DNA of 64,000 nt from Patescibacteria group bacterium. Its GTDB lineage: Bacteria; Patescibacteriota; Patescibacteriia; Magasanikbacterales; GWA2-37-8. Position numbers and translations under genes: made by a program. The notes below the pieces were generated by a model. It saw only the letters and a program-made list of their open reading frames with translations, searched no databases and was not told the origin of the DNA. Below are positions 21,351 through 52,407 of this stretch, one piece after another. The DNA lies in NCBI GenBank assembly GCA_041661385.1, contig JBAZUP010000001.1:7382-71381 (forward strand). Direction: 5' to 3'. Position 1 is the stretch's first letter. Every line of letters starts with the position of its first letter.

Positions 21351-21356
21351 ACACTT

Positions 21357-22724: not shown

Positions 22725-22954
22725 TTTATTTATTCAGGTATCCTCTCCCTCCCTGCAACAAAAAGATTTGTTACAGAGAGGGGAGGGAATACGTTATAAA
22801 CCCGAATCAGTTATAAATGTCGAGAGGTGAATAGTCACCTTGGCTGGTTCATTAGTAGTGGATATCGAAGGTCGCAAGGTTTTCGAGTCCGCTCCGCCCT
22901 AAATCGCGATTCCGTCCGGAAAAGCGGTTTGGAGTGATAATATTTATATTTATT

Positions 22955-26734: not shown

Positions 26735-27190
26735 CCACCCATTTTGTGCGCCCAAAACGGGTGGATCCCAAAAGGCGCCGAGCTGATACTTAGCTCGGCA
26801 AATGCCTCGGCGAAATCAAAACGATTTTTTCAAAAGTGCAAGGTCGCATTGAAAAAATCTAATTTCGTCGGGCAGTTTGCGGCTCGCTTCATATAGGCTC
26901 GGTCACGAATTGTTACCAATTGGCGAGTCCGAGTCTTTTGTGAAGCGATGCCACTTGTCTGGGCGAGGTGAACGTGGGTGGCGCAGTTGTTTGAGCCCAC
27001 AGGCGAGTTCTGCGCCACAGTGAGACGAGCCCTAGAAAGTGGCGAAGTGGAACAACCGACTCGGAGCCTTTTTGGTTTCTTTTTGGGCGAACAAAAAGAA
27101 ACCGCTCGCCGCGCAGGCGTGGCAGCCAGTCCGGCGAGGACTGTTGTTTGAGTAACAGCCAGATTGGTGACTATCTTTGACAAAGACCCG
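26735..27190 (+). repeat. intergenic modular repeat, copy C
   Basis: Shares the loop-ttgtgc hairpin, module M2 (gattttttcaa...ttgaaaaaatc palindrome, ~90% identical to copy B) and a cagaactcg/ctcaaacagctg segment in inverted orientation. Confidence 0.55.
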
Positions 27191-27252
27191 TTATTTAACT
27201 ATAATAAGCGAAGCTTCAACCCCTTAATGAAGTCCCTTTTTTATAATTTATT

Positions 27253-29316
27253 ATGTCAAAAAAGCACATCGAAACGATAATAAAATGGTTAATTTTCGCC
27301 ACCTTTTTTGTCCCGCTCGTCGTCGCGCCGAGTTCATTTATCTTTCCTTTCATTGTTCCTAAAATTCTTCTTTTCCGTTCGCTTACTACCCTTATTATTG
27401 CGCTATACGCCATTCTTTTATATATCAACCCCGCTCAATATCGCCCCCGCGCTTCTTGGTTAAATTGGGCAGTACTCGGTTTTCTAGTTAGTTTTACCCT
27501 TTCTACTTTTTTTGGTTCTGATCCGTATCACAGTTTTTGGGATAACCACGAACGCATGCTTGGTCTTTTTACCATTATTCATTATATTGCTTATTTTTTT
27601 ATATGCGCCCAGGTATTTCGTACCTGGGAGGATTGGAAATTGGCATTGCAAATCTTTTTAGTTGCCGGATCTTGTGTAATGTTTGTCGGATTGCTCCAAG
27701 TATTTAATCCAAATTTTCTTCTTAATGGCGGAAGTGGGCGTGTTATAGCGACAGTTGGCAATGCTATTTATGTCGGTGGTTATGGTTTATTTTTGTTTGC
27801 GGTTGCTAGTTTGTTATTTTTGAAAGAAAAAAATATTTGGTTAAAAGTAATATACGTTTTACTTGCGATTTTGGCGCTCATCGGCATTATTTTCAGCGGC
27901 ACCCGTGGTTCTTTACTTGGTTTAATATTTGGTATTGGCCTTGCGATGATAAGTTATGCTTTTACTTTAAAAGGAAAATCAAAAGTAAAAAATTATTTAT
28001 TAGGAGCTATAATTTTGGGCGTAGCGGTTTTGGGGCTCGCTTATGTAAATCGCCAGTCCAAATTTGTTACCGATATTCCGGCGCTTTCTCGCGTTCTAAA
28101 TACTTCTGTAAAAGAATTACAAGAGGGTGCCCGTGTCATTGCTTGGGGGGCGGCGTTTCAGGGCTGGAAAGACCGACCGATTCTCGGTTGGGGTCCAAAT
28201 AACTTTTTCTATGCATTTAATGCCCATTATGACGCTCGTTCGCTAGAATACGGCTATGGTGAAACCTGGTTCGATAATGCCCACAACATTTTGGTAAATA
28301 CGCTTGCAGTACAAGGGGTAGTTGGCATTATTACTTATCTTGCTATTTTTGCCGCCGCAATTTATATGTTAGTTTCGGCTTACCGAGGTGGTCGGGTCGA
28401 TCGGCACATTGCAGTTATTGGCGCAGCTTATCTCATGGCCCATTTACTTGAAAATGTTACAGTATTTGAAAATCCGACTTCATATTTATATTTTGTATTC
28501 TGGCTCGCCATGATCAACAGTTTGTCTAAAGTTGTTTTTGTAATTAGTGCGGAAAAAAATAAAGTAGTTTTAGATCAAAAAGCCGGTAACGGAATATTGC
28601 TTGGAGCCGGGCTTACCGCGGCGTTATTTATTTTTGTTCTCAATATTCAACCTGCCCGCGCGAATATGAAAACTTTGGACGCGCTTCAAATGATTAATGG
28701 AGATGTGACTCAATCTGTACCGCTTATTGAATCTGCGCTTGATTTTAATTCGCCTCACATTGATGATATCAGAAGTGATATTAGTAGAACACTCGTTGGT
28801 TCGCTTGGTGACACTAGCAGCAAGCTCGATGTTAGTTTAAAAAAACAGCTTTATAATATAGTTGAATCTTCAATGCTTGCGAATATTGAATTACACCCCT
28901 ACGACATTCGCAATCACTTAACTCTTGCGCAACTTTATCAAACTTTTGCGATTCAAAATAATGACGCGAGCGAAATGATAAAAGCCGAAAAATATTTGAC
29001 GGACACGATGGCTCTTTCACCTCGTCGCCAGCAGGTTATATATAATCTAGCAATTGTAAAACTTCAACTCGGTAAGGTGGCAGAAGCTGAAACATTATTT
29101 AAGCAAACTATTACCGATGATCCAAAGATCGCCGAAGGATATTTCCGCCTTGCTTATATGTTTGCGGCAATCGGCCAACCCGAAAAGGCTCTCGCGGTAA
29201 TAAAACAAGCCAGCGACAATAATGTTACCCTTGGCGAAGATCAATTAAATGCTATTAATCAAGTAATCATACAGGCTGCCAAAGCTGCCGGAGCGTCAAC
29301 TAAAACTAAGAAATAA
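27253..29316 (+). CDS. Wzy_C / O-antigen-ligase-family membrane protein with C-terminal TPR domain (candidate O-oligosaccharyltransferase or polymerase)
   Basis: ~10 TM N-terminal domain with a Wzy_C-like loop (FSGTRGSLLGLIFGIGLAM). C-terminal soluble region of TPR-like repeats (LAQLYQTF..., YNLAIVKLQLGKVAEAE, YFRLAYMFAAIGQPEKA). Confidence 0.7.
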   Translation: MSKKHIETIIKWLIFATFFVPLVVAPSSFIFPFIVPKILLFRSLTTLIIALYAILLYINPAQYRPRASWLNWAVLGFLVSFTLSTFFGSDPYHSFWDNHERMLGLFTIIHYIAYFFICAQVFRTWEDWKLALQIFLVAGSCVMFVGLLQVFNPNFLLNGGSGRVIATVGNAIYVGGYGLFLFAVASLLFLKEKNIWLKVIYVLLAILALIGIIFSGTRGSLLGLIFGIGLAMISYAFTLKGKSKVKNYLLGAIILGVAVLGLAYVNRQSKFVTDIPALSRVLNTSVKELQEGARVIAWGAAFQGWKDRPILGWGPNNFFYAFNAHYDARSLEYGYGETWFDNAHNILVNTLAVQGVVGIITYLAIFAAAIYMLVSAYRGGRVDRHIAVIGAAYLMAHLLENVTVFENPTSYLYFVFWLAMINSLSKVVFVISAEKNKVVLDQKAGNGILLGAGLTAALFIFVLNIQPARANMKTLDALQMINGDVTQSVPLIESALDFNSPHIDDIRSDISRTLVGSLGDTSSKLDVSLKKQLYNIVESSMLANIELHPYDIRNHLTLAQLYQTFAIQNNDASEMIKAEKYLTDTMALSPRRQQVIYNLAIVKLQLGKVAEAETLFKQTITDDPKIAEGYFRLAYMFAAIGQPEKALAVIKQASDNNVTLGEDQLNAINQVIIQAAKAAGASTKTKK

Positions 29317-29396: not shown

Positions 29397-30182
29397 ATGA
29401 AAACAATAATCCTTTGTGGTGGCACCGGTACCAGAATGAAAGAGGAAACTGAATTTAAACCAAAGCCCTTGGTTTTGGTCGGTGGAAAGCCAATTCTTTG
29501 GCATATTATGAAAACATACGCTCATTATGGATATAATGATTTTATTTTAGCGCTTGGGTATAAAGGAGACATGATTAAGCAGTATTTCTTAAACTGGCGG
29601 AATTATACTAATGATTTTACTTTGAGTACCAAAAATCATGAAATAACTTTTCATAATAATGATGTGGATGATTTTAAGATTACCTTCGTCGAAACCGGCG
29701 AGAATAGCTTGACCGGTGAGAGGGTCCGTCGTTGTGCGAAGTACCTTGGAACGGATGATTTCATGATTACTTATGGTGACGGTCTCGCTGATATTAATAT
29801 TAAACAACTGGTTGATTTTCATAAAACTCAAAATACTATTGGCACGACTACTGCCGTTCATCATATCAACCGGTTCGGATTATTGGATATTGATTTTAAA
29901 ACTAACAAATTAAAAGGTTTTTATCAGCACAAAGTAACTGAAGAAAACGATCGTCAGCAAGCCAAAGATTTCATCAATGGCGGTTTTATGGTTTTTAAAA
30001 ATGAAGTGTTGAAGCAAGTTGAAGCTGATAGTATGATAGAAAGCATTTTTGAGCCGCTTGCCGTGGCTGGTCAAATGTCAATTTTTGAACATAATGGCAA
30101 GTGGAAATGCATGGATACTTATAAGGAAGTCGAAGAAATGAATGAACTTTGGAAAAAGGATCCGTTTTGGAAAGTTTGGTAA
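29397..30182 (+). CDS. rfbF: glucose-1-phosphate cytidylyltransferase
   Basis: MKTIILCGGTGTRMKEETEFKPKPLVLVGGKPILWHIM. 261 aa, highly characteristic of RfbF/DdhA. Confidence 0.9.
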   Translation: MKTIILCGGTGTRMKEETEFKPKPLVLVGGKPILWHIMKTYAHYGYNDFILALGYKGDMIKQYFLNWRNYTNDFTLSTKNHEITFHNNDVDDFKITFVETGENSLTGERVRRCAKYLGTDDFMITYGDGLADINIKQLVDFHKTQNTIGTTTAVHHINRFGLLDIDFKTNKLKGFYQHKVTEENDRQQAKDFINGGFMVFKNEVLKQVEADSMIESIFEPLAVAGQMSIFEHNGKWKCMDTYKEVEEMNELWKKDPFWKVW

Positions 30183-30196
30183 TTAACCAATTTTTT

Positions 30197-31150
30197 ATGT
30201 CTCTAAAAGGAAAAAATGTTCTGGTTACCGGCGCAACTGGCCTCGTCGGTTCGCATTTAACCGAAAAACTTTTGTCTCTGGGCGCGCTAGTTACTGTTAC
30301 CAAACGCTCTAGTAATCCGCGTTCATATTTTGCTGGTAAAAATTTCGGTGAAAAGGTAATCATGGCCGATTGTGATCTTAAAGATTTTCAACGGGTTTTT
30401 GATGTGGTCACTCGCTATGAAATCGAATATATTTTTCATGTGGCCGCTCAGCCAATAGTTGAAACTGCATATTTTAACCCGCGTGAAACTCTGGAAGATA
30501 ACATTAACGGCACAATAAATATTTTGGAATCAGCTCGTCTTTATCCGCGGGTTAAGGGTGTTGTTGTTGCCTCAAGCGACAAAGCCTACGGTAAGAAATG
30601 CGACAATGCGACGGAGGACGCGCCAATGGCCGGTGATCATCCTTATGACGTTTCTAAGTCCTGTGCAGACCTTATTACGCGTACTTATGCGAAGACTTAT
30701 GGAATGCCGGTTGCAGTTAGTCGATTTGGTAATATTTATGGTCCTGGCGATCTAAATCTTAATCGTATTGTACCCGGCATTATGAAAGCTGCTATTTTGG
30801 GGGAGGAGCTTGTTATCCGTAGTGATGGTAAATTTATTCGGGATTATGTTTATATAAAAGATGTGGTAGATGGTTATTTAAAATTGATGAATAATATTGA
30901 AAAATATAAAGGTGAAGCCTTTAATTTCAGTACCGGTTATAATTATTCAGTTTTGGAAATGGTAGAAAAAATTGGCGCCGTCATGGGTAAAAAAGTTAAT
31001 TTCAAAATTGTAAATAATCAAAAAAATGAAATTCCGGAACAAAGCTTGAATTATGACAAAGCGGAAAAATTGTTAAATTGGAAATCTGCTTTTACTTTTG
31101 AAGAGGGGATAAAAGAAACCTTTGAGTGGTATAAAAATTATTTAAAATAA
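30197..31150 (+). CDS. rfbG: CDP-glucose 4,6-dehydratase (extended SDR)
   Basis: Rossmann motif VLVTGATGLVGSHL. Extended-SDR dehydratase directly after rfbF. ATG at 30197; the track's start at 30149 is a TTG. Confidence 0.8.
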   Translation: MSLKGKNVLVTGATGLVGSHLTEKLLSLGALVTVTKRSSNPRSYFAGKNFGEKVIMADCDLKDFQRVFDVVTRYEIEYIFHVAAQPIVETAYFNPRETLEDNINGTINILESARLYPRVKGVVVASSDKAYGKKCDNATEDAPMAGDHPYDVSKSCADLITRTYAKTYGMPVAVSRFGNIYGPGDLNLNRIVPGIMKAAILGEELVIRSDGKFIRDYVYIKDVVDGYLKLMNNIEKYKGEAFNFSTGYNYSVLEMVEKIGAVMGKKVNFKIVNNQKNEIPEQSLNYDKAEKLLNWKSAFTFEEGIKETFEWYKNYLK

Positions 31151-31156
31151 TTTTTT

Positions 31157-32929
31157 ATGGCGGTTATGACTGGCGCGGAGGTGGTAGCAAATTTTTTAAA
31201 GAAAAATAAAATTTCTCATGTTTTTGATGTCGCGGGCGGCATGATTGCCTATCTTGAAGATGCGATCAGCCGGACTCCGGAAATTCAATGCTTGCCCAGC
31301 CGGCACGAACAAGCCAGCGGTTTTGCCGCCGAGGGCTATGCCCGGATAAGCAAAAATTTTGGTGTTGCTACGGCTACCAGTGGCCCCGGTGCCACCAATC
31401 TTATTACCGCCATTGGCAGTTGTTTTTTTGATTCGGTGCCGACCATGTATATTACCGGTCAGGTAAACACCAAAGATATCAAAAAAAACGCCAATATTCG
31501 GCAAAATGGATTTCAGGAAACGGATATCGTTTCGGTGGTAAAAACGCTTACGAAATACGCAAAACAGGTATTAAAGGTGGGTGATGTTTTGTACGAGCTT
31601 GAAAAGGCGCATTTTTTTATGAAATCAGGCAGGCCCGGACCCGTCTTACTTGATATCCCGATTGATCTTCAGCGTACTTCGTTGGAAATATCGAAGTTTA
31701 GAAAATTTTATGGCTCCCCAGAGCATAAAAAACTCCTCAAGAAATCCGTTGAACCGGGTCTAAAAAATAAAATTAAAAAACTTGAAAAGCTAATTAAGGA
31801 ATCTAGTGCCCCGGTAATCTTAATCGGCGGCGGCATTCAAATCTCTAACACCCAAAAGGAATTAGAAAATTTTGTAAAAAGAAATAATCTTCCGGTTGTC
31901 AGCTCGCTGATGGGTTTAGATTCTTTTCCCGGTTCCTCAGATGATTTTGTCGGTTTTATCGGCAGTTACGGAAATCGCGAGGCCAATATTGTATTTGCTA
32001 ATGCCGACCTGATTATTTCGCTTGGTTCGCGTTTGGATGTGCGGCAAATAGGCAACCCGGCGCTGTTTGCAACGCATGCTAAGGTAGTTCAAGTGGATAT
32101 CGATCCGTATTCTATAAACAACATTGTAAAATCTCACCTGTCATTTGGAATGGATTTGAGAAGTTTTTTTAATCTGGCCAAGAATTTAAGGGCGAATCCA
32201 AAAAACGCCTGGCGGTTTTTTATTCGCAGGGTAAAAGAAAACTTTTCAAAAAAGAGCGTCAAATCTAAACAAATCGATCCCAATACTTTTATATCCAAAT
32301 TATCAGCCGTCTCCGGTAGAGATGTTTCGGTTGTTTCCGATGTCGGTAACCACCAGATGTGGCTGGCACAATCTTGGAAAACCAAGCCTGGTCAGCGCCT
32401 GTTATTTAGCGGTGGCATGGGTAGCATGGGGTTTGCTTTGCCGGCAGCAATCGGGGCACACTTTGCTGACACAAACAAAACCGTGGTCGTACTTTGCGGC
32501 GATGGCGGGTTTCAAATGAATATTCAGGAGTTAGAAACTGTTCGGCACCAAAAAGTACCGCTTAAGATATTTATATTAAACAACCAGTCGCTCGGCATGG
32601 TCAAAGATTTTCAAACCACATACCTGAAGAGTAATTTTCAATCTACCGTAATTGGTTATTCAAATCCCAGTTTTAGGAAGATTGCCTCCGCCTACGAGCT
32701 GGATTATGTTTCTATTGACAGCGGTTTGAAAGAAATTGAATTTTCCAAAATTTTAAATTCAAAAAAAGCAGTTTTAGTTGAAGTTAAAATACCGTTTAAC
32801 ACCACCCTTGAACCAAAAGTAACTTTTGGAAACGCTCTCGATAACCAATATCCGTTTTTAAGTGAGGAAAAAATGAAATTACTACGGGCAATCAAGGCGG
32901 AGTTTGAAGTAACAAAAAAATCGGCTTAG
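31157..32929 (+). CDS. thiamine-diphosphate-dependent acetolactate-synthase-like enzyme (YerE-like candidate branched-sugar synthase)
   Basis: 590 aa TPP enzyme fold. N-terminal Pyr domain, central domain, C-terminal GDGGFQMNIQELET TPP-binding motif. Located inside the CDP-sugar operon. Confidence 0.75.
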   Translation: MAVMTGAEVVANFLKKNKISHVFDVAGGMIAYLEDAISRTPEIQCLPSRHEQASGFAAEGYARISKNFGVATATSGPGATNLITAIGSCFFDSVPTMYITGQVNTKDIKKNANIRQNGFQETDIVSVVKTLTKYAKQVLKVGDVLYELEKAHFFMKSGRPGPVLLDIPIDLQRTSLEISKFRKFYGSPEHKKLLKKSVEPGLKNKIKKLEKLIKESSAPVILIGGGIQISNTQKELENFVKRNNLPVVSSLMGLDSFPGSSDDFVGFIGSYGNREANIVFANADLIISLGSRLDVRQIGNPALFATHAKVVQVDIDPYSINNIVKSHLSFGMDLRSFFNLAKNLRANPKNAWRFFIRRVKENFSKKSVKSKQIDPNTFISKLSAVSGRDVSVVSDVGNHQMWLAQSWKTKPGQRLLFSGGMGSMGFALPAAIGAHFADTNKTVVVLCGDGGFQMNIQELETVRHQKVPLKIFILNNQSLGMVKDFQTTYLKSNFQSTVIGYSNPSFRKIASAYELDYVSIDSGLKEIEFSKILNSKKAVLVEVKIPFNTTLEPKVTFGNALDNQYPFLSEEKMKLLRAIKAEFEVTKKSA

Positions 32930-32931
32930 AT

Positions 32932-33825
32932 ATGTCTTTAAAAACTACCGTTTTTCTGGCAGGCGGATCAGGATTTATCGGCAAAAATATATTGGAACAG
33001 TTAGGTGATAAATATAATATTATCGCTCCGGACCGCGCTGAGCTGAATCTATTAGATAGCGAGGCCGTGCTGGATTTTTTTAAAAAAAATCCGGTTGATA
33101 TTGTCGTTAATTCAGCTGCGGAAGGAGTGTATATAAAAAACCGGATTGACCCGATGATAACTCTGAATAATTTAAAAATATTTTATAATCTTGTAAGAGC
33201 AAAAAAATATTTTAATCGAATGGTAATGCTGGGTTCAGGGGCGGAATATGATAAAAAACAGAATCTTAAAAAGACCTCGGAAAATGACTTTGATCGGACA
33301 GTTCCAGCCGATGAGTATGGCCTTTATAAATATATCTGCGCGAAATTCGCGGGCGAGGTAGACTATATTACCCATCTTCGACTATTTGGAGTTTTTGGAA
33401 AATATGAAAATTATGAGATTCGATTTATTTCCAATGCTATTTGTAAGGTGCTTTTTAATTTGCCGATTACCATACGGCAAGACGTAAAATTTGATTACAT
33501 ATTTATTGATGATTTTGTAAAAATTTTAGATCAAATTATCAAAAAAAAACCGGTGGAGAAATTTATTAATATTGGTAGAGGTGAGGATGTTAGTTTGAAA
33601 ACTCTCGCGGAAATGATTATCAAGGAAGTAGGTGTTAAGGTTCCGATTAAAATTTCCGAACCAGGTTTAGGCAATGAGTATAGTTGCAATAATTCCCGGT
33701 TGCTAAATGAGATGGAAATGATTGATTTTACTCCTTTTAGTGTTTCTATTTCAAACTTGGTGGAGTATTATCGTAAGATTTTGCCGACATTGAACAAAAA
33801 ATCATTTATTGATTATGAGAGATAA
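32932..33825 (+). CDS. NAD(P)-dependent sugar epimerase/reductase (extended SDR)
   Basis: Rossmann motif FLAGGSGFIGKNI. ~300 aa. Confidence 0.7.
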   Translation: MSLKTTVFLAGGSGFIGKNILEQLGDKYNIIAPDRAELNLLDSEAVLDFFKKNPVDIVVNSAAEGVYIKNRIDPMITLNNLKIFYNLVRAKKYFNRMVMLGSGAEYDKKQNLKKTSENDFDRTVPADEYGLYKYICAKFAGEVDYITHLRLFGVFGKYENYEIRFISNAICKVLFNLPITIRQDVKFDYIFIDDFVKILDQIIKKKPVEKFINIGRGEDVSLKTLAEMIIKEVGVKVPIKISEPGLGNEYSCNNSRLLNEMEMIDFTPFSVSISNLVEYYRKILPTLNKKSFIDYER

Positions 33826-34870
33826 TTTTAATAAAATTATTGATGAAGATTTAGCCTATATAATGAAAGCCGATTTGCCATGGCATGAATTGGAAGGAAA
33901 AAATATTTTAATCGCCGGCGCCAACGGTGCACTGCCGGCTTACATGGTGGAAACAATTTTATATCTGAACAAAAATTTGTTAAAAAATAAAGCGAAAATT
34001 TTTGCTTTGGTTAGAAATATTGAAAAAGCTCAAAAAAAATTTGGACGTCACAAAGACGATAAAAATTTGGAGTTTGTTATCCAGGACGTTTGTGACAAGA
34101 TAAATTTATCGAATGATTTAGATTACATAATTCATGCGGCAAGCCAGGCGAGTCCTAAATATTATGGCAGCGATCCGGTTGGGACACTTTTGCCAAACGT
34201 ACTTGGCACTTACAATCTTTTGGAATTAGCAAGAGAAAAAAGTCTGAAAGGTTTTATCTTTTTCAGCTCGGGGGCTGTTTACGGCCCAATTGGGGATAAT
34301 CAGCAGGCAAATAACGAAAAAAAATTTGGCATACTAGATCCGTTTACCATTGAATCTTGTTATCCGGAAAGCAAACGAATGGGTGAAAACATGTGCCAGG
34401 CCTGGCTTAGCCAGTACAAAATTCCTATCAAGGTGGTCAGACCATTTCATACCTATGGTCCGGGTGTTGGACTTAATGATGGACGGGTTTTTGCAGATTT
34501 TGTCCGTAATATAGTCAATAATGAAGATATTACTATGAATAGTGATGGAAGCGCAAAAAGAACTTTTTGTTATCTTGCCGATGCCGCAATCGCATTTTTT
34601 ACCGTGTTATTAAAAGGAAATATCGGTGAGGCTTATAACGTCAGCGGTGACAAATTGGTAAGTATTAGCGAGTTAGCCGGTACTCTGGTAAATATGTTTC
34701 CGGAGAAAAATCTAAAAATAAAAAGAAATGAAATTTTAGATAAAAATTATCTTAAAACCGCCGCTTCCGGGCATCTTCCGGATATCAGCAAAATTGTCGG
34801 ATTGGGGTGGAAGCCAGTTTATTCAATCGAGGAAGGCTTCAGGAGGATGATTAAAAGCTTTGAGCAATAA
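33809..34870 (+). CDS. NAD-dependent epimerase/dehydratase family protein
   Basis: ILIAGANGALPAY glycine-rich motif and YxxxK region. 353 aa. Confidence 0.7.
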   Translation: MIMRDNFNKIIDEDLAYIMKADLPWHELEGKNILIAGANGALPAYMVETILYLNKNLLKNKAKIFALVRNIEKAQKKFGRHKDDKNLEFVIQDVCDKINLSNDLDYIIHAASQASPKYYGSDPVGTLLPNVLGTYNLLELAREKSLKGFIFFSSGAVYGPIGDNQQANNEKKFGILDPFTIESCYPESKRMGENMCQAWLSQYKIPIKVVRPFHTYGPGVGLNDGRVFADFVRNIVNNEDITMNSDGSAKRTFCYLADAAIAFFTVLLKGNIGEAYNVSGDKLVSISELAGTLVNMFPEKNLKIKRNEILDKNYLKTAASGHLPDISKIVGLGWKPVYSIEEGFRRMIKSFEQ

Positions 34871-34891
34871 GGATATTCATTATATATTCAT

Positions 34892-35818
34892 ATGAAAAAA
34901 TTAATAGAAAATAAATTGGACTATAAAAAAGGTGCTATTCCAAAGGCGGAGTACATTGATATTATGTATCAAAATCACGCCGTCTTATTTGAGTATGCGG
35001 ATTTTATCAAGGATACTGATATCGAAAAAATAGAAATTTCCAATGGAGAAGTAATAATGGTAACCAAAGACTCCGGTATTAAAATTCTTTGCGCGAAAGG
35101 GGATAAAAGAATTGCCCCAATTGAAATATTGAATTTTGACCATTATGAAAAAAGCGAGCTTGATTTTACCCTGAAACTAATTGATAAAAAAAGCACCGTT
35201 TTTGATATCGGTGCGAATTATGGATGGTATTCATTTAATATCGCTAAATCATTTCCAGATTGTAAAATATATGCGTTTGAGCCAATACCCAGGACCTATT
35301 CATATTTGAAAACCAACATTGAATTAAATAAATTTTCAAATATAAATATAAATAATTTCGGTTTTTCCGACGTGGAGAAGGAAATTCCATTTTATTATTA
35401 CCCCGAAGGGTCGGCAAATGCTTCTGCAGCGAATTTGACGAATACGGATTCAGTGGTAAAAATAAATTGTCCGGTAATAATGTTGGATAATTTTGTCGCG
35501 AAGAACAATGTCGGATTAGATTTTATAAAATGCGATATTGAGGGGGCCGAGCTGTTAGCTTTTAAGGGGGGATTGAAATCTATCGCTAAATATAAACCGG
35601 TTATTTTTACCGAGATGCTTAGAAAATGGTCGGAAAAATTTAACTATCATCCGAATGAAATTATTAAATTATTGACAGACATCGGTTATGGGTGTTTTGT
35701 GATCGACGGTGATTATTTGAAACCATTTTACAAAATGGACGAGCAAACCATAGAAACAAATTTTTTCTTTTTGCATTTAGACCATCATAAGAAAAAAATA
35801 AATATGTTTCTTAAATAA
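34892..35818 (+). CDS. FkbM-family methyltransferase
   Basis: Signature FDIGANYGWYS. Confidence 0.8.
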   Translation: MKKLIENKLDYKKGAIPKAEYIDIMYQNHAVLFEYADFIKDTDIEKIEISNGEVIMVTKDSGIKILCAKGDKRIAPIEILNFDHYEKSELDFTLKLIDKKSTVFDIGANYGWYSFNIAKSFPDCKIYAFEPIPRTYSYLKTNIELNKFSNININNFGFSDVEKEIPFYYYPEGSANASAANLTNTDSVVKINCPVIMLDNFVAKNNVGLDFIKCDIEGAELLAFKGGLKSIAKYKPVIFTEMLRKWSEKFNYHPNEIIKLLTDIGYGCFVIDGDYLKPFYKMDEQTIETNFFFLHLDHHKKKINMFLK

Positions 35819-35828
35819 CTACATTTTT

Positions 35829-36767
35829 ATGGATGAAAAAAAACTTATCAGCGTGGTAACGCCGACTTATAATGAGGAGTTGAATGTTGAGGAATTATAT
35901 AATCAAACGAAGGCGGTTTTTGCTGGCTTGCCGCAATATAATTACGAGCATATTTTTATTGATAACGCATCTAAGGATAAAACTGTCGGGATTTTGAAAA
36001 ATATTGCCGTGAAAGATAAGAATGTTAAAATCATTGTTAATTCTAAGAATTTTGGCCATATTCGTTCGCCATACCATGGTTTGTTACAGGCCCGCGGTCA
36101 GGCAATTATTCTTTTGGTCGCCGACCTTCAGGATCCCCCGCAGTTAATAAATGATTTTTTAAAAAAATGGGAAGAGGGTTATTCAATAGTGGTCGGAGTA
36201 AAGAATAAAAGCGAAGAAAACCCCCTTATGTTTGCTGTCCGGAAATTGTATTATTATTTGATTAATAAATTTTCAGAAGTGGAACAAATTAAAAATTTCA
36301 CCGGTTTTGGATTGTATGACCAAAAATTTATTGAAATTTTACGGACCATAGATGATCCGTATCCATATTTGAGGGGAATGGTCACGGAATTGGGTTGGAA
36401 TCGGTTCGAAGTACCATATGTTCAACCGTCGCGAAAAAAAGGTAAAACCAGTAATAATTTTTATTCGCTCTATGATGTGGCGATGTTGGGTTTTGTCAAT
36501 CACTCAAAAATTCCGCTTCGGTTGGCAAGTTTTATCGGATTTGGGATGTCGGTAATAAGTTTTGTGATTGGTATAATTTATTTTACCTTCAAATTGCTTT
36601 ATTGGGACCGTTTCCAGACCGGTTTAGCCCCTCTAATTATTGGAATTTTTCTATTTTCTTCGGTTCAATTATTTTTTATTGGTATTTTGGGCGAATATAT
36701 TAGTGCTATTTATACCCAGGTTCGCCACCGCCCCCTGTTGATTGAAAAAGAGCGGATAAATTTTTAG
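35829..36767 (+). CDS. GT2 polyprenyl-phosphate glycosyltransferase (GtrB/ArnC/DPM1-like) with C-terminal TM helices
   Basis: ISVVTPTYNEE N-terminus and DxD region (LVADLQD). Two C-terminal TM helices. Confidence 0.8.
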   Translation: MDEKKLISVVTPTYNEELNVEELYNQTKAVFAGLPQYNYEHIFIDNASKDKTVGILKNIAVKDKNVKIIVNSKNFGHIRSPYHGLLQARGQAIILLVADLQDPPQLINDFLKKWEEGYSIVVGVKNKSEENPLMFAVRKLYYYLINKFSEVEQIKNFTGFGLYDQKFIEILRTIDDPYPYLRGMVTELGWNRFEVPYVQPSRKKGKTSNNFYSLYDVAMLGFVNHSKIPLRLASFIGFGMSVISFVIGIIYFTFKLLYWDRFQTGLAPLIIGIFLFSSVQLFFIGILGEYISAIYTQVRHRPLLIEKERINF

Positions 36768-36777
36768 TTGTCATTCT

Positions 36778-37923
36778 GTGCCTGTCAAAGAACTCCTTAA
36801 TAGAAATAATGAATCTAGCTCAATTATGTCGCAATCTGGAGTATTAGTAAAAAATGGAAAATTGAAATTTTTGGATTTTGTCCGGGCGGCGGCAACCATC
36901 GCTGTATTTGTCTTTCATACCGGTTACCTTTTTGCGTTTTCCAGAACTAGTATTATCAATTGGGTAAAATTGGTAACCGATGGCGGTACGGTTGGTGTCA
37001 GTGTTTTTTTTGTTTTGAGTGGTTTTCTGCTTTTTTATCAGCTTTACAAAAACAAGGAGCAGCTAGATGGTCCTAAATTAAAAGCTTATATCAAAAAAAG
37101 ACTACTTAGAATTTTACCGTTGTATTATTTTTCTTTATTTTTTATTGTTATATTTTTGCGGCATGATATCCTTTTTGCTGCCGATGGCGTACGGTCGATT
37201 TTATATAATTTAATATTTACTCGCGGGATAAAAAGCGGTGGGGGAGGTGGCACTATTACTATTAATCCGGTTTATTGGTCGCTAGTGGTAGAAATGCATT
37301 TTTATATTTTGTTACCGATTTTTTATCATTTTTTTTATAAATTAAAAAATATATTACTATTTGTGGGAGTACTATTGTTGGGCGTTGCCTATCGTTTGGC
37401 GCTGGTTTATTTGGTTAAGACACCCAGTATGCAATTTATGCGGTTCACACCCGCAAATTTTGATTATTTCGCGCTCGGCATGCTTGGTGCGTATTTATAT
37501 GTAAATCACGCCAAGGTTTTGAATTATATCGGCAATCAGTATCTGCAAATTGCTTCGGTGGTCGTGTTTATATTGTTTGTGCATTATTACGATTTGAGTT
37601 TCTTGCCGACATTATCCTATGTTTTTGCTCCGGTTCTTCTTGGTTTTATTACCGTTTTTTGCATGTTGTCGTTTTTGATGAACGACCGGTCTCTATTATC
37701 AAAAATATTTACTTCCGCACCATTTTTGTATATAGCCAAAATTAGTTTTAGTATTTATATTTGGCACGCCATTATTATTAGTAAAGTAGACGTTCTCGCA
37801 CTTCCGAACGCTCAAAAAATTATTATCAACATCGTCTTAACTTTAGTTGTTTCGGCCACTACATATTATTTGGTAGAAGCACCCTTTTTAAGAGTAAAAA
37901 ATCGGAAAATTGCTTCGGTATAG
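36778..37923 (+). CDS. acyltransferase family 3 (OafA-like O-acetyltransferase)
   Basis: ~10 TM protein with FLDFVRAAATIAVFVFH motif. Confidence 0.8.
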   Translation: MPVKELLNRNNESSSIMSQSGVLVKNGKLKFLDFVRAAATIAVFVFHTGYLFAFSRTSIINWVKLVTDGGTVGVSVFFVLSGFLLFYQLYKNKEQLDGPKLKAYIKKRLLRILPLYYFSLFFIVIFLRHDILFAADGVRSILYNLIFTRGIKSGGGGGTITINPVYWSLVVEMHFYILLPIFYHFFYKLKNILLFVGVLLLGVAYRLALVYLVKTPSMQFMRFTPANFDYFALGMLGAYLYVNHAKVLNYIGNQYLQIASVVVFILFVHYYDLSFLPTLSYVFAPVLLGFITVFCMLSFLMNDRSLLSKIFTSAPFLYIAKISFSIYIWHAIIISKVDVLALPNAQKIIINIVLTLVVSATTYYLVEAPFLRVKNRKIASV

Positions 37924-38042
37924 TTGATTTTACGCATAAATTAGCTAAAAAGTCAGGTTTAACCTTGATTTTTTTGCTATTTTAGGGTATTATTATTGGT
38001 CTTTTGGCCACTCTCGGCCGAAAGCAAACCAGGAGAGAATCC

Positions 38043-38627
38043 GTGAATTCCGAATCGCTGAACCAGCAGGTGTGGGTCGCCGTGACCAGACTCACCGCCC
38101 TTTTCAAGGGCGATCCAAACGGCGAGGAAGCTGTGAAGAATGCTTTGGCTCAGTTGCTCCGACTGGTGGATCCCTCGAAGCCCTACGGCACGGTGCTGTT
38201 TGACAGTCTCTCCAGGCTCACTTGGAGCATCGCCTTCGAGGGCGTTGCTCTCCGGTTGAATCCGAAGACCAAGAAGCCCGAGGTCTTCCTCAGGAAGCGT
38301 GCCGACGATGACACGGCCTATCCTGGGGAGTGGCATGCCCCCGGTTCGGCCTTCCGTCCCCGGGAGAAGCCAAACCTCGTCGCGAGGCGTCTCTCTCGTG
38401 AGTTCGGGTCCGAGATCATGGACTTCAAGCTGGTGGGGCAGTACTTCTCCAACGAGCAGAGAGGCGACTTCTTGTCGCTCATCTACCTCGTGAAGTTCGA
38501 CGGCGAGCCCCGCGTCGACAACCGGCACATCTGGTGTCCGGTCGACAAGCTGCCGGAGAATACGGTCAACATTCACCGGGATCACCTCATCCCGGCTGCG
38601 GTCGCTGCATATCGCTCGTCTCACTAG
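38043..38627 (+). CDS. Nudix hydrolase resembling GDP-mannose mannosyl hydrolase (Gmm/NudD/WcaH), encoded in GC-rich island 2
   Basis: ~60% GC with GC3 periodicity on the + strand. AGGAGA SD 6 nt before GTG 38043; the track's TTG is at 38004. Modified Nudix box GEWHAPGSAFRPREKPNLVARRLSREFG aligns position-by-position with the Gmm box [29 protein letters not shown]. Confidence 0.5.
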   Translation: MNSESLNQQVWVAVTRLTALFKGDPNGEEAVKNALAQLLRLVDPSKPYGTVLFDSLSRLTWSIAFEGVALRLNPKTKKPEVFLRKRADDDTAYPGEWHAPGSAFRPREKPNLVARRLSREFGSEIMDFKLVGQYFSNEQRGDFLSLIYLVKFDGEPRVDNRHIWCPVDKLPENTVNIHRDHLIPAAVAAYRSSH

Positions 38628-38647
38628 GCTATCGTTCTTTTCCGGCC

Positions 38648-38694
38648 AAAGCGCCCTATCCCATACTCTTCGGAGTTAATAGATAGGGCGCTTC
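38648..38694 (+). terminator. long-stem hairpin after the Nudix gene (putative terminator)
   Basis: aaagcgccctatc ...21 nt... gatagggcgctt, a 12-bp stem. No strong T-run. Confidence 0.4.
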
Positions 38695-38711
38695 TTTAAT
38701 TACCCCAAAGT

Positions 38712-38740
38712 TTGCATTTTTACCTTAAAATTGGTAAAAT
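38712..38740 (+). promoter_or_regulatory. sigma70-like promoter for rfbH (TTGCAT-17 nt-TAAAAT)
   Basis: TTGCAT at 38712-38717, TAAAAT at 38735-38740. Confidence 0.45.
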
Positions 38741-38777
38741 TATCGCCTAATCATCGCAGAAAAAGTGCTAAATAAGT

Positions 38778-40085
38778 ATGGAAGAATCGCTAAAAAATGA
38801 GCTATTAAAGGCCTATAAAGCCAAATTTATCCGAAAGCCGTTTGTGCCCGGTGAATCATCGGTTCCGGTATCCGGTAAGGTTTTTGACGAAGAGGAAATT
38901 ATCCTGGCCACCGAAGCGGTTTTAGACGGTTGGTGGACTGAAGGACGGTTTACAACCCTTTTTGAACACAAAATTTCCAAGTGGCTCGGGGTAAATTATG
39001 CATCACTAGTAAATTCAGGATCATCTGCTAATTTGGTTGCTCTCATCGCCTTAACTTCTATAAAATTAGGCGACAAAAGACTCAAACCCGGTGATGAAGT
39101 GATTACCGTCGCGGCGGGTTTCCCGAGTACCGTAACACCCATTATTCAAAACGGACTCACTCCGGTTTTTGTAGACGTTGATTTAGGTACATACAACATC
39201 AATATTGAGGCGATGAAAAAGGCTCTGTCGGTAAAAACCCGGGCGGTTATGGTCGCACATACGCTCGGTAATCCATTTGATTTGAAAGAAGTAAAAAGTT
39301 TTTGCGAAAAAAATGATTTATGGTTGATTGAAGATGATTGCGACGCACTTGGGGCAAAATTTAGTGGAAAACACACCGGCACGTTTGGTCATATTGCTAC
39401 CTGCAGTTTTTATCCTGCCCACCATATTACCATGGGGGAGGGTGGTGCGGTTTTTACCAATGACCCGAAGCTTTTTAAAATTATTGAATCAGTCCGTGAT
39501 TGGGGGCGCGATTGTTGGTGCGAACCCGGCAATGATAATACTTGCCAAAAACGCTTCGGCTGGAAATTGGGTGAATTACCGGAAGGGTACGACCACAAAT
39601 ATATTTATTCGGAAATCGGTTATAATTTAAAGCTTACCGATATGCAGGCGGCGATTGGTCTTGCTCAATTTGATAAACTGGACAGTTTTATTGCAAAACG
39701 AAAAGAAAATTTTAAAATTCTTTACGAAGGATTAAAAAAATACGGCCAATATTTTATTTTGCCGGAGTGGTTGTCGGAATCCGACCCAAGCTGGTTTGGT
39801 TTTTTGCTCACCGTAAAAAACAATGCGCCATTTAAACGCGGGGAAATTGTTAAATTCCTTCAGGACAAAAAAATTGCCACCAGATATCTTTTTGCCGGTA
39901 ATTTACTTCGTCAACCCTCTTTTGTAGACCGGAAGCCGGATTATCGTGTAGTTGGTAACCTGGAAAATACCGATATTATTATGAATAATACTTTTTGGAT
40001 TGGGGTTTACCCTGGTCTGACAGCGGAAATGCTAAATTATGTGGTTAGTTGTTTTTCAGTGTTTATAGAGCAATTAAAGGGTTAG
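38778..40085 (+). CDS. rfbH: CDP-6-deoxy-D-xylo-4-hexulose-3-dehydrase (E1, PMP-dependent, DegT family)
   Basis: 435 aa. Active-site His replaces the usual Lys ([14 protein letters not shown]). Fe-S cysteine cluster [14 protein letters not shown]-terminus like RfbH. Confidence 0.85.
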
Positions 40086-40089: not shown

Positions 40090-41613
40090 TTGTATATGTT
40101 ACAGGTTAATAAATTTTACATAATATATTCATTAAACTGGCTGACGTTGGCGGTTATTTCTGTTTTTCAATATCCAATGTTATTTAGTAAATCCTGTTTT
40201 TTTCAAAAGAATTGGTTATTTTGCGCTGAAAATGTTACAGGCAGTAGCAAGTTTATCGATATTTTTATAATCTCGATATTTTTTATAAATTTATTTTTAA
40301 GCGGTATATTTTGTTGGAAGGTTTTTAAGAAAGAATATATTATTAAAAATAATATAAAATATTTAATAATTGGCTTGTCTTTGCTGTTGCCGATTTTTAT
40401 ATTTCCTTTCGGATCTGGTGATATGACCCACTATTTTAGCTCGGGTAAAGCAGCATCAGGGGGGATAAATTTATATTCCAGCCAGTGGAATTGGGAAAAG
40501 GATTATAACAATTCGCAAGTAGTTGAAATTTTGGCCGGGTATTCATACGGGCCAATTGTTTTGGATATATTAAATATATTTTATAAATTAAGTAATAATA
40601 AAATATATACATTCATATTGTTTTGGAAAATATTTATGGTCGGTGTAGTTGCGCTTTGCGGGTATTTAATAAAATATATAATAAAAATGATTGTCCCAAG
40701 CGCAAGCTTAAATAATTTTTATATTTTTTGGTTCACCCAACCAATTTTTTTATTTGAATGTTTGGTCGATGGTCATTTTGATATTTTGTGGCTTGTATTT
40801 CTTTTGTTAGCTATTATTTTTGCTCACCATAATAAATGGTGGTTAGTTTTTCCGCTTTTGGCAATAGGGGTTTGGATTAAATTTATACCAATTTTAGTTG
40901 CTCCCTGGTTTTTATTGTGGTGGTGGCAAAAAACAAACCGACTAAATTGGAAAAGCAACACAGTGAATTTGTTTGTTGGTTCAATTTTGACGATTTTATT
41001 AACAATCGGTGTTTGGTATAAATACTGGGTAGGATTTAGTGTTTTTAATTTTATTATATTGCAATCTAAGTGGGCTATTTCAAGTATATTTTCAGTAGTT
41101 TATTATAGTTTCCTGCCATTCTTCAAAAATATTTTTGGTACCAATTACCATTGGTATTTAACTCGGTTTGCCCACGCAGTTGTACTTGTTGCGTTTATAT
41201 ATTTATTAGTTCCTTTAATAAAAAATATTTTTAAAATATTTTTAAAAAAACAAACTTTTTCAACTTCACAATATATCGTTTCAATTTTTATAAGTTTATT
41301 TTCATATTTAGTAATCTGGCAAAAATCTATTTGGCCTTGGTATTTTGTATGGATTTTGCCGCTTGGTTTAATTGTTTATTTTATCAGTAGAAATTTATAT
41401 TTAGAAAAATTATTAATTTGGCTTGGAACGGCACCCCTAATTTCCTACATCGTTTGGTTTATAAATTGGCAATTAATTCATACAGACGCTTTTGGTGAAT
41501 ATTGGTATTTCTGTTTTACCGTTTTTTTTGTAACTGGGTATCCATTGTATAATTTTATTAAATGGCGTAAGCAAGGGTATTCAGATGTTTTAGATAATGT
41601 TAATAATATATGA
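40090..41613 (+). CDS. polytopic membrane protein, putative GT-C glycosyltransferase or Wzy-like polymerase
   Basis: 507 aa, >12 hydrophobic segments, Trp/Tyr-rich loops. No soluble domain. Confidence 0.4.
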
Positions 41614-42635
41614 AAAAAGCGCTAATCACCGGTATTACCGGACAAGACGGATCATATTTGGCGGAATTTCTTTTGTCAAAAGGTTACGAAGTCCATGGAA
41701 TTATCCGCCGTTCCAGCAGTTTTAATACGGGCCGGATTGACGGAATATTTCAGGATCCGCACGCCGAGCGGCCAAAAATGATTTTGCACTATGGCGATTT
41801 GACAGACGGCAGTAATTTGAACCGCATTCTCGAAAAGGTAAAGCCCGATGAGATATATAATCTGGGCGCACAGAGTCATGTGTTGGTCAGTTTTGAAATG
41901 CCGGAGTATACCGGAGAGGTGGATGGGTTAGGTACGCTGCGACTACTCGATGCAGTAAGAGAAACCGGTCTCAAGGTTAAATTTTATCAGGCCGGATCTT
42001 CGGAAATGTTTGGTAAGGTTTTGGAAACTCCTCAAAAAGAAACCACGCCCTTTTATCCGCGCAGCCCTTATGGCTGTGCCAAAGCCTACGCTCATTATTT
42101 GGCGGTTAATTATCGCGAGGCATACAACATGTTTATTTGTAACGGTATCTTATTCAATCACGAATCTCCCCGCCGCGGTGGAACTTTTGTCACCAAGAAA
42201 ACTGTAGCTGCCCTCGCAAAAATAAAAGCCGGCAAGCAGGACAAGCTTTACCTAGGAAATTTGGAGTCCAAACGCGATTGGGGTTATGCGAAGGAATATG
42301 TTGAAGCGATGTGGGCCATGCTTCAGCATACCAAGCCGGCTGATTATGTAATTGCGACCGGCGAAACCCACAGTGTGCGGGAGTTGGCAGAAATTGCGGC
42401 AAAATATTTTGGTTTCGAATTGGTCTGGAAAGGTGAAGGACTGAACGAAAAGGGGGTTGATAAAAAAACCGGTAAAACAATCATTGAAATTGACCCGCAT
42501 TATTTCCGTCCCACCGAAGTCGATTATTTGATTGGTGATGCTTCAAAAGCAAAGAAAGAATTAGGCTGGGAAGCCAAAGTTAAATTTAAAGAGTTAATAG
42601 AAATAATGTGCAGGGAAGAAATGGAAAAAGTATGA
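41610..42635 (+). CDS. gmd: GDP-mannose 4,6-dehydratase
   Basis: [46 protein letters not shown], near-canonical GMD N-terminus. 341 aa. Confidence 0.95.
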
Positions 42636-43798: not shown

Positions 43799-43801
43799 CA
43801 T

Positions 43802-50517: not shown

Positions 50518-50591
50518 GGGCTTTGCCCATATAAACTCATTCGTTTGAAAATATTTCAGCAAGCTAAATATTTTACTCACTCATTTCGTTT
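50513..50591 (+). promoter_or_regulatory. conserved inter-operon element, copy 2
   Basis: tataggggctttgcccatata palindrome + ttttactcactcatttcgtttATG leader, matching 29322-29396. Confidence 0.4.
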
Positions 50592-51584: not shown

Positions 51585-51607
51585 TTTAATCCTAGTAGTT
51601 TTGTTAT

Positions 51608-52357: not shown

Positions 52358-52372
52358 GCTTGATAATAAAAG

Positions 52373-52399: not shown

Positions 52400-52407
52400 T
52401 ACTACAT

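Follow-up and report, generated by a model that had tools for sequence, protein, structure and literature searches.

Genes of the locus

A 64-kb stretch (hereafter the window) of contig JBAZUP010000001.1 from a Patescibacteria group bacterium was analysed around the interval 29397-40085, which carries homologues of rfbF, rfbG and rfbH of cytidine diphosphate (CDP)-3,6-dideoxyhexose synthesis together with a gene for a thiamine diphosphate (ThDP)-dependent enzyme (Table 1). An original prediction, made from the DNA sequence, had proposed that this enzyme is of the same class as YerE of Yersinia and that the locus may produce a branched-chain dideoxy sugar. All open reading frames (ORFs) of the interval were recovered on the + strand where that prediction had placed them. 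The interval makes up the leading third of a ~35-kb locus for surface glycan, and between 27253 and ~51.6 kb almost every gene is on the + strand and separated from the next by a short gap. The same gene order was found in independent assemblies from ENA and Logan, and the G+C content of the window is ~39.5%.

Table 1. Features of the glycan locus, in window coordinates, and E3-like genes of related loci.
Feature	Position	Strand	Basis
Promoter-like site TTGACA-17-TATAAT, upstream of the gene that opens the co-directional glycan operon	27177..27205	+	12/12 consensus matches (consensus match alone)
Wzy_C (O-antigen ligase/polymerase-like) membrane protein with C-terminal TPR repeats	27253..29316	+	Pfam Wzy_C 70 bits, TPR
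RfbF/DdhA-type glucose-1-phosphate cytidylyltransferase (makes CDP-D-glucose)	29397..30182	+	TIGR02623, PDB 1TZF
RfbG/DdhB-type nucleoside diphosphate (NDP)-glucose 4,6-dehydratase	30167..31150	+	TIGR02622, SSDKAYG and YDVSK motifs
YerE-like ThDP-dependent carboligase, sugar C-branching enzyme	31157..32929	+	Pfam TPP_enzyme_N, _M, _C
Short-chain dehydrogenase/reductase (SDR) 1, SDR1	32932..33825	+	Pfam Epimerase; weak similarity to GDP-fucose synthase and RmlD
SDR2, extended SDR of reductase/epimerase type	33815..34870	+	Pfam Epimerase 138 bits
FkbM-family S-adenosylmethionine (SAM) methyltransferase	34892..35818	+	Methyltransf_21 66.5 bits; TIGR01444 94.7 bits (above cut-off of 37.7)
GtrB/ArnC/PgfS-like family 2 glycosyltransferase (GT2)	35829..36767	+	PDB and NCBIfam matches, two C-terminal transmembrane (TM) helices
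Acyl_transf_3 integral-membrane acyltransferase	36778..37923	+	Pfam PF01757 110.6 bits
NUDIX-fold protein, 194 aa, degenerate Nudix box	38043..38627	+	NCBI NUDIX domain annotation, fold match
RfbH/DdhC (E1), pyridoxamine 5'-phosphate (PMP)- and [2Fe-2S]-dependent CDP-4-keto-6-deoxyglucose 3-dehydrase	38778..40085	+	NF011936, 3BCX
Polytopic 505-aa membrane protein after rfbH	40096..41613	+	Precomputed Pfam PF26314 MptA_B_family (identical gene in L002)
E3-like genes	L051, L054, L057, L061, L065, L073, L077, L078; ~6.1-7.2 kb in each locus

RfbF gave a full-length match to TIGR02623 (1.9e-79, 266.7 bits), which lies under the cut-off of 300.25, and its sole PDB match at E ≤ 1e-15 was 1TZF, the glucose-1-phosphate cytidylyltransferase of Salmonella (208 bits). 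The best NCBIfam model for RfbG was that of CDP-glucose 4,6-dehydratase (TIGR02622, 199 bits, under the cut-off of 278), and its PDB scores are ambiguous, with 126 bits for the CDP-type enzyme 1RKX against 132 bits for the deoxythymidine diphosphate (dTDP)-type enzyme 6BI4. The motifs SSDKAYG and YDVSK are present in RfbG, the Asp-Lys pair of the former being presumably the signature of CDP-type dehydratases, with Asp-Glu in RmlB. RfbG is probably CDP-glucose specific.

The third enzyme, RfbH, scored 706.5 bits against NF011936, above the cut-off of 423, and 570 bits against the E1 of Y. pseudotuberculosis (PDB 3BCX). His215 and His216 replace the aminotransferase Lys within the motif SFYPAHH, His215 aligning with His220 of E1, and the His-for-Lys motif named in the original prediction was located at residues 210-223. 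The cysteines Cys188-X57-Cys246-X1-Cys248-X7-Cys256 form a four-Cys motif; the exact cysteine spacing of E1 is said to have been given by Agnihotri et al. in 2004. Both E1 and SpnQ have a four-Cys [2Fe-2S] motif, of which all four residues are needed, together with a His that replaces the aminotransferase Lys (PMC8987622). The pathway genes that had been proposed, of rfbF and rfbG type and an rfbH with His-for-Lys and Fe-S cysteines, are thus present, the E-values of the matches being well outside what chance would give. At the level of sequence the identity of E1 is established unambiguously, and that of RfbF is supported.

Relationship of the ThDP-dependent enzyme to YerE and acetolactate synthase

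The ThDP-dependent enzyme displays the ThDP/Mg motif GDG-X24-NN from residue 448, and the catalytic Glu51 is invariant in the alignment of its relatives. Its best PDB match was 5AHK (382 bits, 37.6% identity over the full length), compared with 314 bits for the plant acetohydroxyacid synthase (AHAS). The entry 5AHK was deposited as 'acetolactate synthase II', and we take it to be PpYerE of Pseudomonas protegens (Hampel et al. 2018). The latter study is cited in PMC12247030. The top NCBIfam and JGI name for the window enzyme is 'acetolactate synthase large subunit', and a 100%-identical protein is named 'thiamine pyrophosphate-binding protein' by NCBI. Such names, together with an identity of ~37% to plant AHAS, would fit an ordinary AHAS of branched-chain amino acid synthesis that has come to lie in a sugar cluster by chance. 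However, the score of 458 bits against TIGR00118 lies under the cut-off of 538.35, and the enzyme stays under the cut-off of every AHAS equivalog model. Pairwise identity was rejected as a discriminator between YerE and AHAS, the values of ~36-37% to both being uninformative; consequently, the YerE-like assignment rests on the tree, the indel and the gene context.

The indel is an insertion of six residues (GQVNTKDIKKNANIRQNGFQETD, against GQVTRRM------IGTDAFQET in AHAS), which is common to 5AHK, absent from AHAS and found in 81 of the 81 ingroup sequences described below. Its pattern TxxxKxxxxIRQxGFQE is found in both the window enzyme and 5AHK, and the RQxGFQE motif is lacking in AHAS. Where AHAS has RFDDRV the window enzyme has RLDVRQ, the Arg itself being kept; RxDVRQxG also occurs in 5AHK, and the wider pattern RxDxRQxG unites both enzymes with most or all of the 81 relatives. 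The position of Trp574 in Arabidopsis AHAS is occupied by Phe in the window enzyme, in 5AHK and in 77/81 relatives. In AHAS, this Trp belongs to the acceptor site, and the RFDDR motif likewise has functional meaning.

A scan of 185,579 species genomes, in which the insertion motif was among the search patterns, returned at least 548 relatives, and 80 loci were kept. The phyla represented include Elusimicrobiota, Omnitrophota, Campylobacterota, Bacteroidota, Bacillota and Desulfobacterota, as well as methanogenic archaea. A neighbour-joining (NJ) tree was built from 88 sequences, comprising the window enzyme, 5AHK and 81 loci with E. coli IlvI, IlvB, Gcl and PoxB and Arabidopsis AHAS. The split that separates the first three groups from IlvI, IlvB, Arabidopsis AHAS, Gcl and PoxB was recovered in 200 of 200 bootstraps, with 5AHK nested within the ingroup. 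The window enzyme falls into a subclade (L003-L013) dominated by the candidate phyla radiation (CPR), and 5AHK groups with other loci. Clustering with the AHAS of amino acid synthesis, the outcome that the original prediction had named as contrary to its proposal, was hence not observed, and the placement in the YerE class is in line with 5AHK as best solved relative and with the shared insertion.

Linkage was counted in the 68 genome loci that had ≥8 kb of flanking sequence, neighbours being taken within 10 kb and E1 homologues at ≥44% identity. An E1 homologue was found near the ThDP gene in 55 of these loci, rfbF in 60 and an rfbG-like SDR gene in 64. Both His and all four Cys are kept in 55 E1 homologues; in a further one, Gln takes the place of the second His. 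The gene order in the window is rfbF-rfbG-TPP-SDR1...rfbH, with TPP as the ThDP gene, and its linkage with rfbF/G/H is conserved across phyla as judged from the gene sequences. The original prediction had also pointed to adjacent ilv genes in relatives as a sign of amino acid synthesis. No AHAS small subunit (IlvH/IlvN, tblastn, E ≤ 0.01) was detected in the window or in 83 loci, and Pfam scans of window ORFs ≥120 aa gave no ilv genes. In combination with the tree, the clade-specific insertion, the Phe in place of the AHAS Trp and the position within a sugar operon conserved across phyla, these results leave a chance-placed AHAS extremely improbable. At the level of sequence they show that the window enzyme is a member of the YerE-like clade and not a biosynthetic acetolactate synthase; for the window enzyme, the use of a ketone acceptor (a CDP-4-keto sugar) is predicted.

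Electron supply of E1

The earlier remark that no E3 reductase is visible in the window agrees with each of the searches made. A tblastn search with a Bacteroidota E3-like ORF from L054 (E ≤ 1) gave no ferredoxin-NADP reductase (FNR)/2Fe-2S ORF, and neither a scan for FNR/2Fe-2S motifs nor Pfam scans of 67 ORFs ≥120 aa revealed FNR, 2Fe-2S, ferredoxin or flavodoxin in the 64 kb. Likewise, a Cys-motif scan of window ORFs ≥40 aa yielded no credible ferredoxin; its three incidental matches lie inside an NrdR zinc-ribbon ORF (one) and in ORFs overlapping the gene of a 1229-aa protein (two). Among the related loci, an E3-like gene is linked in just 8/80, all from Bacteroidota and directly upstream of rfbF. 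Thus, the absence of E3 is typical of such clusters. The Bacteroidota ORFs comprise ~345 aa, with RxYS near the N-terminus (FNR module) and a C-terminal C-X4-C-X2-C...C 2Fe-2S motif. AscD has the opposite domain order.

The lack of E3, ferredoxin and flavodoxin in the window could mean that E1 does not turn over, in which case branching would take place on CDP-4-keto-6-deoxyglucose to give a 4-C-branched 6-deoxyhexose, or the pathway would be defective. In the same direction, the ThDP enzymes most closely related to that of the window within the CPR, those of L005-L012 (metagenome-assembled genomes of Paceibacterota, Saccharibacteria and Taylorbacteria), are accompanied by an Fe-S-free DegT homologue that retains the His, in place of a canonical E1. 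These DegT genes lie on the minus strand 2-7 kb upstream of the ThDP gene, and their products, 38-41% identical to RfbH, keep the catalytic His without 3/4 of the [2Fe-2S] cysteines; they may be ColD-like, reductase-independent CDP-hexose 3-dehydratases. This pairing suggests that reductase supply is a real constraint in the phylum. However, the E1 of the window keeps every catalytic and cluster residue, and E1 homologues of 65-70% identity are found in the CPR-like loci L013, L089 and L092. With a linked E3-like gene in so few loci against a canonical E1 in 55, unlinked reductases are the rule. Furthermore, the window encodes two radical-SAM enzymes, which likewise need a low-potential electron donor, and the E1-type enzyme SpnQ can draw its electrons from general reductase pairs with ferredoxin or flavodoxin (PMC8987622). 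An E1 without turnover is on this evidence improbable; its electrons would presumably come from a general system of ferredoxin or flavodoxin type that is encoded outside the window.

Probable branch donor and tailoring enzymes

Two SDR genes had been proposed to follow the ThDP gene, and both are present. In 9 genome loci, the ThDP gene is followed immediately by a homologue of SDR1. Because this position matches the adjacency of yerE-yerF and erwE-erwF, SDR1 is a candidate for a YerF/ErwF-type side-chain ketoreductase. SDR2 carries SSGAVYG and lacks the Asp/Glu dehydratase acid/base pair, and its best PDB match was a UDP-glucuronate decarboxylase (130 bits). The gene pair of SDR2 and the FkbM protein travels together in six other loci (L033, L042, L050, L056, L066 and L069). 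The FkbM protein is a probable sugar O-methyltransferase, and both members of the pair are candidate tailoring enzymes.

Evidence on the branching step also comes from L092 (metagenome contig Ga0233424_10000458), which was recovered by a metagenome scan seeded with GT2. This locus is syntenic with the window, with identities of 51% for Wzy, 72% for rfbF, 63% for rfbG, 59% for SDR1, 78% for GT2, 68% for rfbH, 62% for ColD and 78% for Gmd. The slot between rfbG and SDR1 (5414-9976 of L092) is filled by an acetaldehyde dehydrogenase (AcetDehyd-dimer), a DmpG-type 4-hydroxy-2-oxovalerate aldolase and a different, Erw-type ThDP enzyme, directly downstream of which the SDR1 homologue is found. The latter ThDP enzyme is 31% identical to that of the window. 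A similar aldolase/dehydrogenase cassette is held by L090, the ThDP subfamily of L090/L092 being 31-34% identical to the window enzyme. In the published erwiniose arrangement, ErwJ/ErwI/ErwE/ErwF, the aldolase supplies 4-hydroxy-2-oxopentanoate as donor, and ErwE rejects pyruvate (PMC9306805). The L092 cassette matches this order and appears to be of erwiniose type, which supports a branching role for the ThDP enzyme in the window.

Conversely, no pyruvate-aldolase/acetaldehyde-dehydrogenase cassette was found in the 64-kb window. YerE adds a pyruvate-derived C2 unit to CDP-4-keto-3,6-dideoxyglucose, after which YerF reduces (PMC9306805, PMC12247030); YpYerE prefers pyruvate, and PpYerE is described as its homologue (PMC12247030). 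As the window enzyme is a clade mate of 5AHK and lacks an accompanying aldolase, the donor keto acid is most likely pyruvate, which would leave an acetyl (C2) branch. A donor other than pyruvate, i.e. a longer or functionalised 2-oxo acid that leads to another acyl-branched sugar and not to a yersiniose-type octose, has to be considered, given that the donor ranges of characterised family members vary widely (PMC9306805), that ErwE, MMAR_2332 and MyGE take such acids and that no available rule lets donor choice be read from single residues. A product tailored beyond yersiniose is also indicated by SDR2 and the FkbM methyltransferase, and a gene for an aldolase of the transaldolase/fructose-6-phosphate aldolase (FSA) family is located 18 kb downstream (58322-59044). 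FSA-type aldolases, however, do not make 2-oxo acids, and this one adjoins heptose genes. Since the loci with an aldolase/dehydrogenase cassette, L092 and L090, employ a different ThDP subfamily, and since the window enzyme groups with the 5AHK clade, we regard a non-pyruvate donor as unlikely.

Proposed delivery to the cell surface

The GT2 matched GtrB (sll0501, 160 bits) and ArnC (96 bits) in the PDB and the NCBIfam model for PgfS (184.6 bits, under the cut-off), and its two TM segments lie at residues 228-289. Homologues of 55-78% identity were found inside rfbH/ThDP clusters of Patescibacteria-like, Paenibacillus, Bacteroidota and Geobacter loci, and E1 was present within 10 kb in 22/40 of the GT2-seeded metagenome loci (≥9 kb). 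The protein is probably a polyprenyl-phosphate glycosyltransferase, with delivery of the sugar by a polyprenyl-phosphate route. The Acyl_transf_3 protein is polytopic, with many overlapping hydrophobic stretches in a crude hydropathy scan from which the number of helices is unreliable, and is a probable glycan O-acetyltransferase. For the 505-aa protein, which has ~11 hydrophobic segments and a 37% homologue in L092, our own sequence searches of Pfam, NCBIfam and PDB gave nothing meaningful; it is a candidate GT-C (MptA/B-family) glycosyltransferase using a polyprenyl-phosphate-linked sugar. A crude hydropathy test for GT-C near GT2 was positive in 25/51 loci, a test by which GT-C is inseparable from Wzx or Wzy.

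A more specific scheme, which we put forward only tentatively and consider rather doubtful as a whole, is that GT2 loads the branched dideoxy sugar from its CDP form onto polyprenyl phosphate and that GT-C transfers it outside the membrane to a surface glycan or an S-layer-type protein, no cytoplasmic Leloir transferase being involved. The 1229-aa Ser/Thr-rich secreted protein would then be a candidate acceptor, relatives would vary the epitope by swapping Yer- and Erw-type cassettes in a single slot, and the GC-rich NUDIX-fold protein that accompanies such clusters would act on the CDP-sugar pool. We know of no CDP-sugar-dependent lipid-carrier glycosylation route described before, and, if true, this would be the first.

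Proposed pathway

In the pathway that these genes suggest, RfbF would form CDP-glucose from glucose-1-phosphate and CTP, and the RfbG-type SDR would oxidise and dehydrate it to CDP-4-keto-6-deoxyglucose. RfbH (E1) would then strip the 3-OH via a PMP-glucoseen intermediate to give CDP-4-keto-3,6-dideoxyglucose, two electrons being passed to its [2Fe-2S] cluster by a reductase not encoded in the window, as for SpnQ. The YerE-like enzyme would decarboxylate a 2-oxo acid and add the acyl-anion equivalent onto the C4 ketone, so that a tertiary alcohol bearing an acetyl group arises; SDR1, in the role of YerF/ErwF, could then reduce the carbonyl of this branch. Further tailoring of the sugar may follow by SDR2 and the FkbM methyltransferase, before the GtrB/ArnC-like GT2 would load it on polyprenyl phosphate. 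The GT-C-like protein would then carry out its transfer outside the membrane, and O-acetylation of the glycan would fall to the Acyl_transf_3 protein. In this scheme, we infer the donor, the functions of the two SDRs, the source of electrons and the route via a lipid carrier.

We estimate at about three in four the probability that the region forms the central part of an operon for surface glycan and makes a CDP-activated 4-C-branched 3,6-dideoxyhexose of yersiniose type. The branched-chain dideoxy sugar that had been suggested from the sequence thereby gains support from the tree, the insertion, the gene linkage and the syntenic L092 cassette. What is new here is the host and not the chemistry, the pathway being the known one of the YerE-like clusters. 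Several observations nevertheless weigh against the yersiniose-type assignment. Both RfbF and RfbG score under the NCBIfam equivalog cut-offs, and the nucleotide specificity of the latter is ambiguous by PDB scores. The tree, calculated by NJ only, holds one member with a solved structure (5AHK), and its ingroup was gathered by similarity to the query; identity is no discriminator, with 37.6% to 5AHK against ~37% to plant AHAS over the aligned part. The 64 kb contain no E3, ferredoxin or flavodoxin, so that E1 turnover is unproven, and there are two SDRs where the Yersinia pathway needs one. With regard to delivery, the GT-C label derives from one precomputed Pfam match that was not reproduced by our own scans, and several Leloir-type glycosyltransferases downstream could take the CDP-sugar directly.

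The GC-rich NUDIX-like gene

The ORF of the NUDIX-like protein has a GC content of 0.585 and a GC3 of 0.756, compared with ~0.35 in the flanks. It is preceded by an AGGAG of its own that resembles a ribosome-binding site, and a strong hairpin (38649-38693, -29.6 kcal/mol, z = -4.6) lies just past its stop codon. Among 5.8 billion proteins ~30 homologues were found, the named ones being from Patescibacteria. In other loci, too, homologues are the GC-richest genes (0.61/0.44, 0.57/0.41, 0.51/0.37 and 0.46/0.39 for gene against locus). They usually lie in CDP-sugar or C-branching clusters, as in L089, L090, L091 and L092. An AlphaFold2 model of the protein reached a pLDDT (predicted local distance difference test score) of 93, and its top PDB fold match was CDP-Chase, a Nudix enzyme, a match that is generic for the fold; the protein is a candidate for binding or hydrolysing CDP-sugars. 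A minus-strand ORF at 37977-38576, called by one gene caller, was dropped in favour of the + strand ORF because of the GC3, the homologues, the + strand annotation by NCBI and the pLDDT of the latter. Recent horizontal acquisition of rfbH, suspected from a GC content of 0.469 in the 38-40 kb bin, was also rejected, since rfbH itself, at 0.412, is only slightly raised and the anomaly arises from the 650-bp NUDIX-like island and not from rfbH.

Adjoining genes and genomic setting

Directly downstream, at 41610-44749, lies a second 3,6-dideoxyhexose pathway. It comprises a GDP-mannose 4,6-dehydratase (TIGR01472, 564 bits, above the cut-off), a ColD-like PMP-dependent 3-dehydratase (PDB ColD, 217 bits) with His for Lys and no Fe-S motif, and a GDP-fucose-synthase/ColC-like SDR (462 bits, just under the cut-off), which together predict GDP-L-colitose. 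Further on, the genes at 49798-55351 encode an HddC-like nucleotidyltransferase, an HddA-like GHMP kinase, a GmhA-like SIS isomerase and a GmhB-like phosphatase, and suggest an NDP-glycero-manno-heptose pathway. An HD-domain protein and, on the minus strand, a B12-binding radical-SAM gene (52408-53943) are found in the same stretch.

The promoter-like site at the start of the operon is a sigma-70-like hexamer pair and a putative promoter. The Wzy_C protein is encoded by the first gene of the locus and has homologues of 51-52% identity at the equivalent position in L004 (52%) and L092 (51%); it is a candidate glycan ligase, polymerase or O-oligosaccharyltransferase. Directly upstream of the glycan operon (20796-26623) are the genes for an extracytoplasmic function (ECF) sigma factor, a DUF5667 protein and the 1229-aa protein. 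The last of these starts with a signal peptide, consists of Ser and Thr to 23%, is poor in charged residues and gave no Pfam match; it is a candidate for an S-layer protein or surface glycoprotein. On the minus strand, the gene at 9336-10964 encodes an Elp3-like radical-SAM plus GNAT protein, and housekeeping genes elsewhere in the window are those of FtsA, FtsZ, NrdR, YbeY and serine hydroxymethyltransferase.

The closest genome relative of the whole cluster is L004 (CAZXML010000013.1), an 8-kb contig with identities of 52% for Wzy, 69% for rfbF, 60% for rfbG, 64% for TPP, 53% for SDR1 and 78% for GT2. It bears the database label 'uncultured Gammaproteobacteria bacterium' and, judged by its gene content and likeness to the window, may be mis-binned.

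Comparison with known systems and significance

The closest parallel is provided by the yersiniose A genes of Y. pseudotuberculosis O:6/O:12 (ddhD-ddhA-ddhB-ddhC with yerE and yerF). The window likewise has E1 together with probable cytidylyltransferase and 4,6-dehydratase genes, and it shares with Yersinia a ThDP carboligase with an adjacent NAD(P)H reductase candidate within a locus for cell-surface polysaccharide. Unlike Yersinia, the window has no ddhD/E3 in 64 kb, and eight genes part rfbH from rfbF/G. It also adds a second SDR, the FkbM methyltransferase, the GT2 of polyprenyl-phosphate type, the acyltransferase and the NUDIX-like gene, and, in contrast to Yersinia, the CPR host belongs to a phylum that is not known to have lipopolysaccharide (LPS). 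A further likeness is the adjoining GDP-colitose pathway, as Y. pseudotuberculosis O:6 combines colitose and yersiniose (PMC5399914). The erwiniose genes of Pectobacterium atrosepticum (ErwE/ErwF/ErwI/ErwJ) and the mycobacterial MMAR_2332/MyGE follow the same logic of a CDP-4-keto-3,6-dideoxyglucose acceptor, ThDP-dependent branching and side-chain reduction (PMC9306805). The window differs from the erwiniose cluster in having no aldolase/dehydrogenase pair and in the low identity of its ThDP enzyme to the Erw-type enzyme of L092.

At the level of the single enzymes, 5AHK has the insertion, RxDVRQxG, the Phe at the Trp574 position and the clade in common with the window enzyme, yet its identity is low and its subclade a different one. 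AHAS enzymes (IlvB/IlvG/IlvI and the plant enzyme) share the three-domain fold, the catalytic Glu and GDG-X24-NN, at ~32-37% identity; in contrast to these, the window enzyme has the insertion, Phe for Trp574, RLDVR for RFDDR, no regulatory subunit and a context of sugar genes. SpnQ, the 3-dehydratase of TDP-sugars in spinosyn synthesis, is also a PMP/[2Fe-2S] enzyme of E1 type without a dedicated E3 gene, but the RfbH of the window is far closer to the Yersinia E1 and is linked to CDP-sugar genes. Systems of the GtrB/GtrA/Gtr*, ArnC/ArnT and PgfS/PgfM type correspond to the window in the homology of GT2, its two C-terminal TM helices and a large polytopic protein nearby. Unlike the GtrB/GtrA systems, the window showed no GtrA-like small flippase gene, and the GT-C assignment is weak. 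To our knowledge, a CDP-linked branched dideoxy sugar has not been described as donor for the GtrB/ArnC/PgfS class.

It is chiefly in the LPS or lipooligosaccharide of a few Proteobacteria and mycobacteria that branched 3,6-dideoxy sugars related to yersiniose, erwiniose and caryophyllose have been described. The minimal genomes of CPR organisms are accompanied by a surface chemistry that is essentially uncharacterised, and we know of no earlier discussion of a YerE-type branched dideoxy-sugar cluster in Patescibacteria. The locus thus leads to a concrete, testable prediction, namely that a CPR cell surface bears an unusual sugar. From gene clusters, over 200 other enzymes of the YerE-like kind have been predicted (PMC12247030). 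Since a linked E3 is missing from most clusters, E1 dehydrases would as a rule rely on reductases encoded elsewhere. A single, highly conserved GT2 of GtrB-like type recurs inside these clusters across phyla, and the exchange of branching cassettes between sister lineages is a plausible route to surface-antigen diversity. Finally, YerE-like enzymes are wanted as biocatalysts for chiral tertiary alcohols, and the divergent CPR subclade adds sequence diversity to this family.

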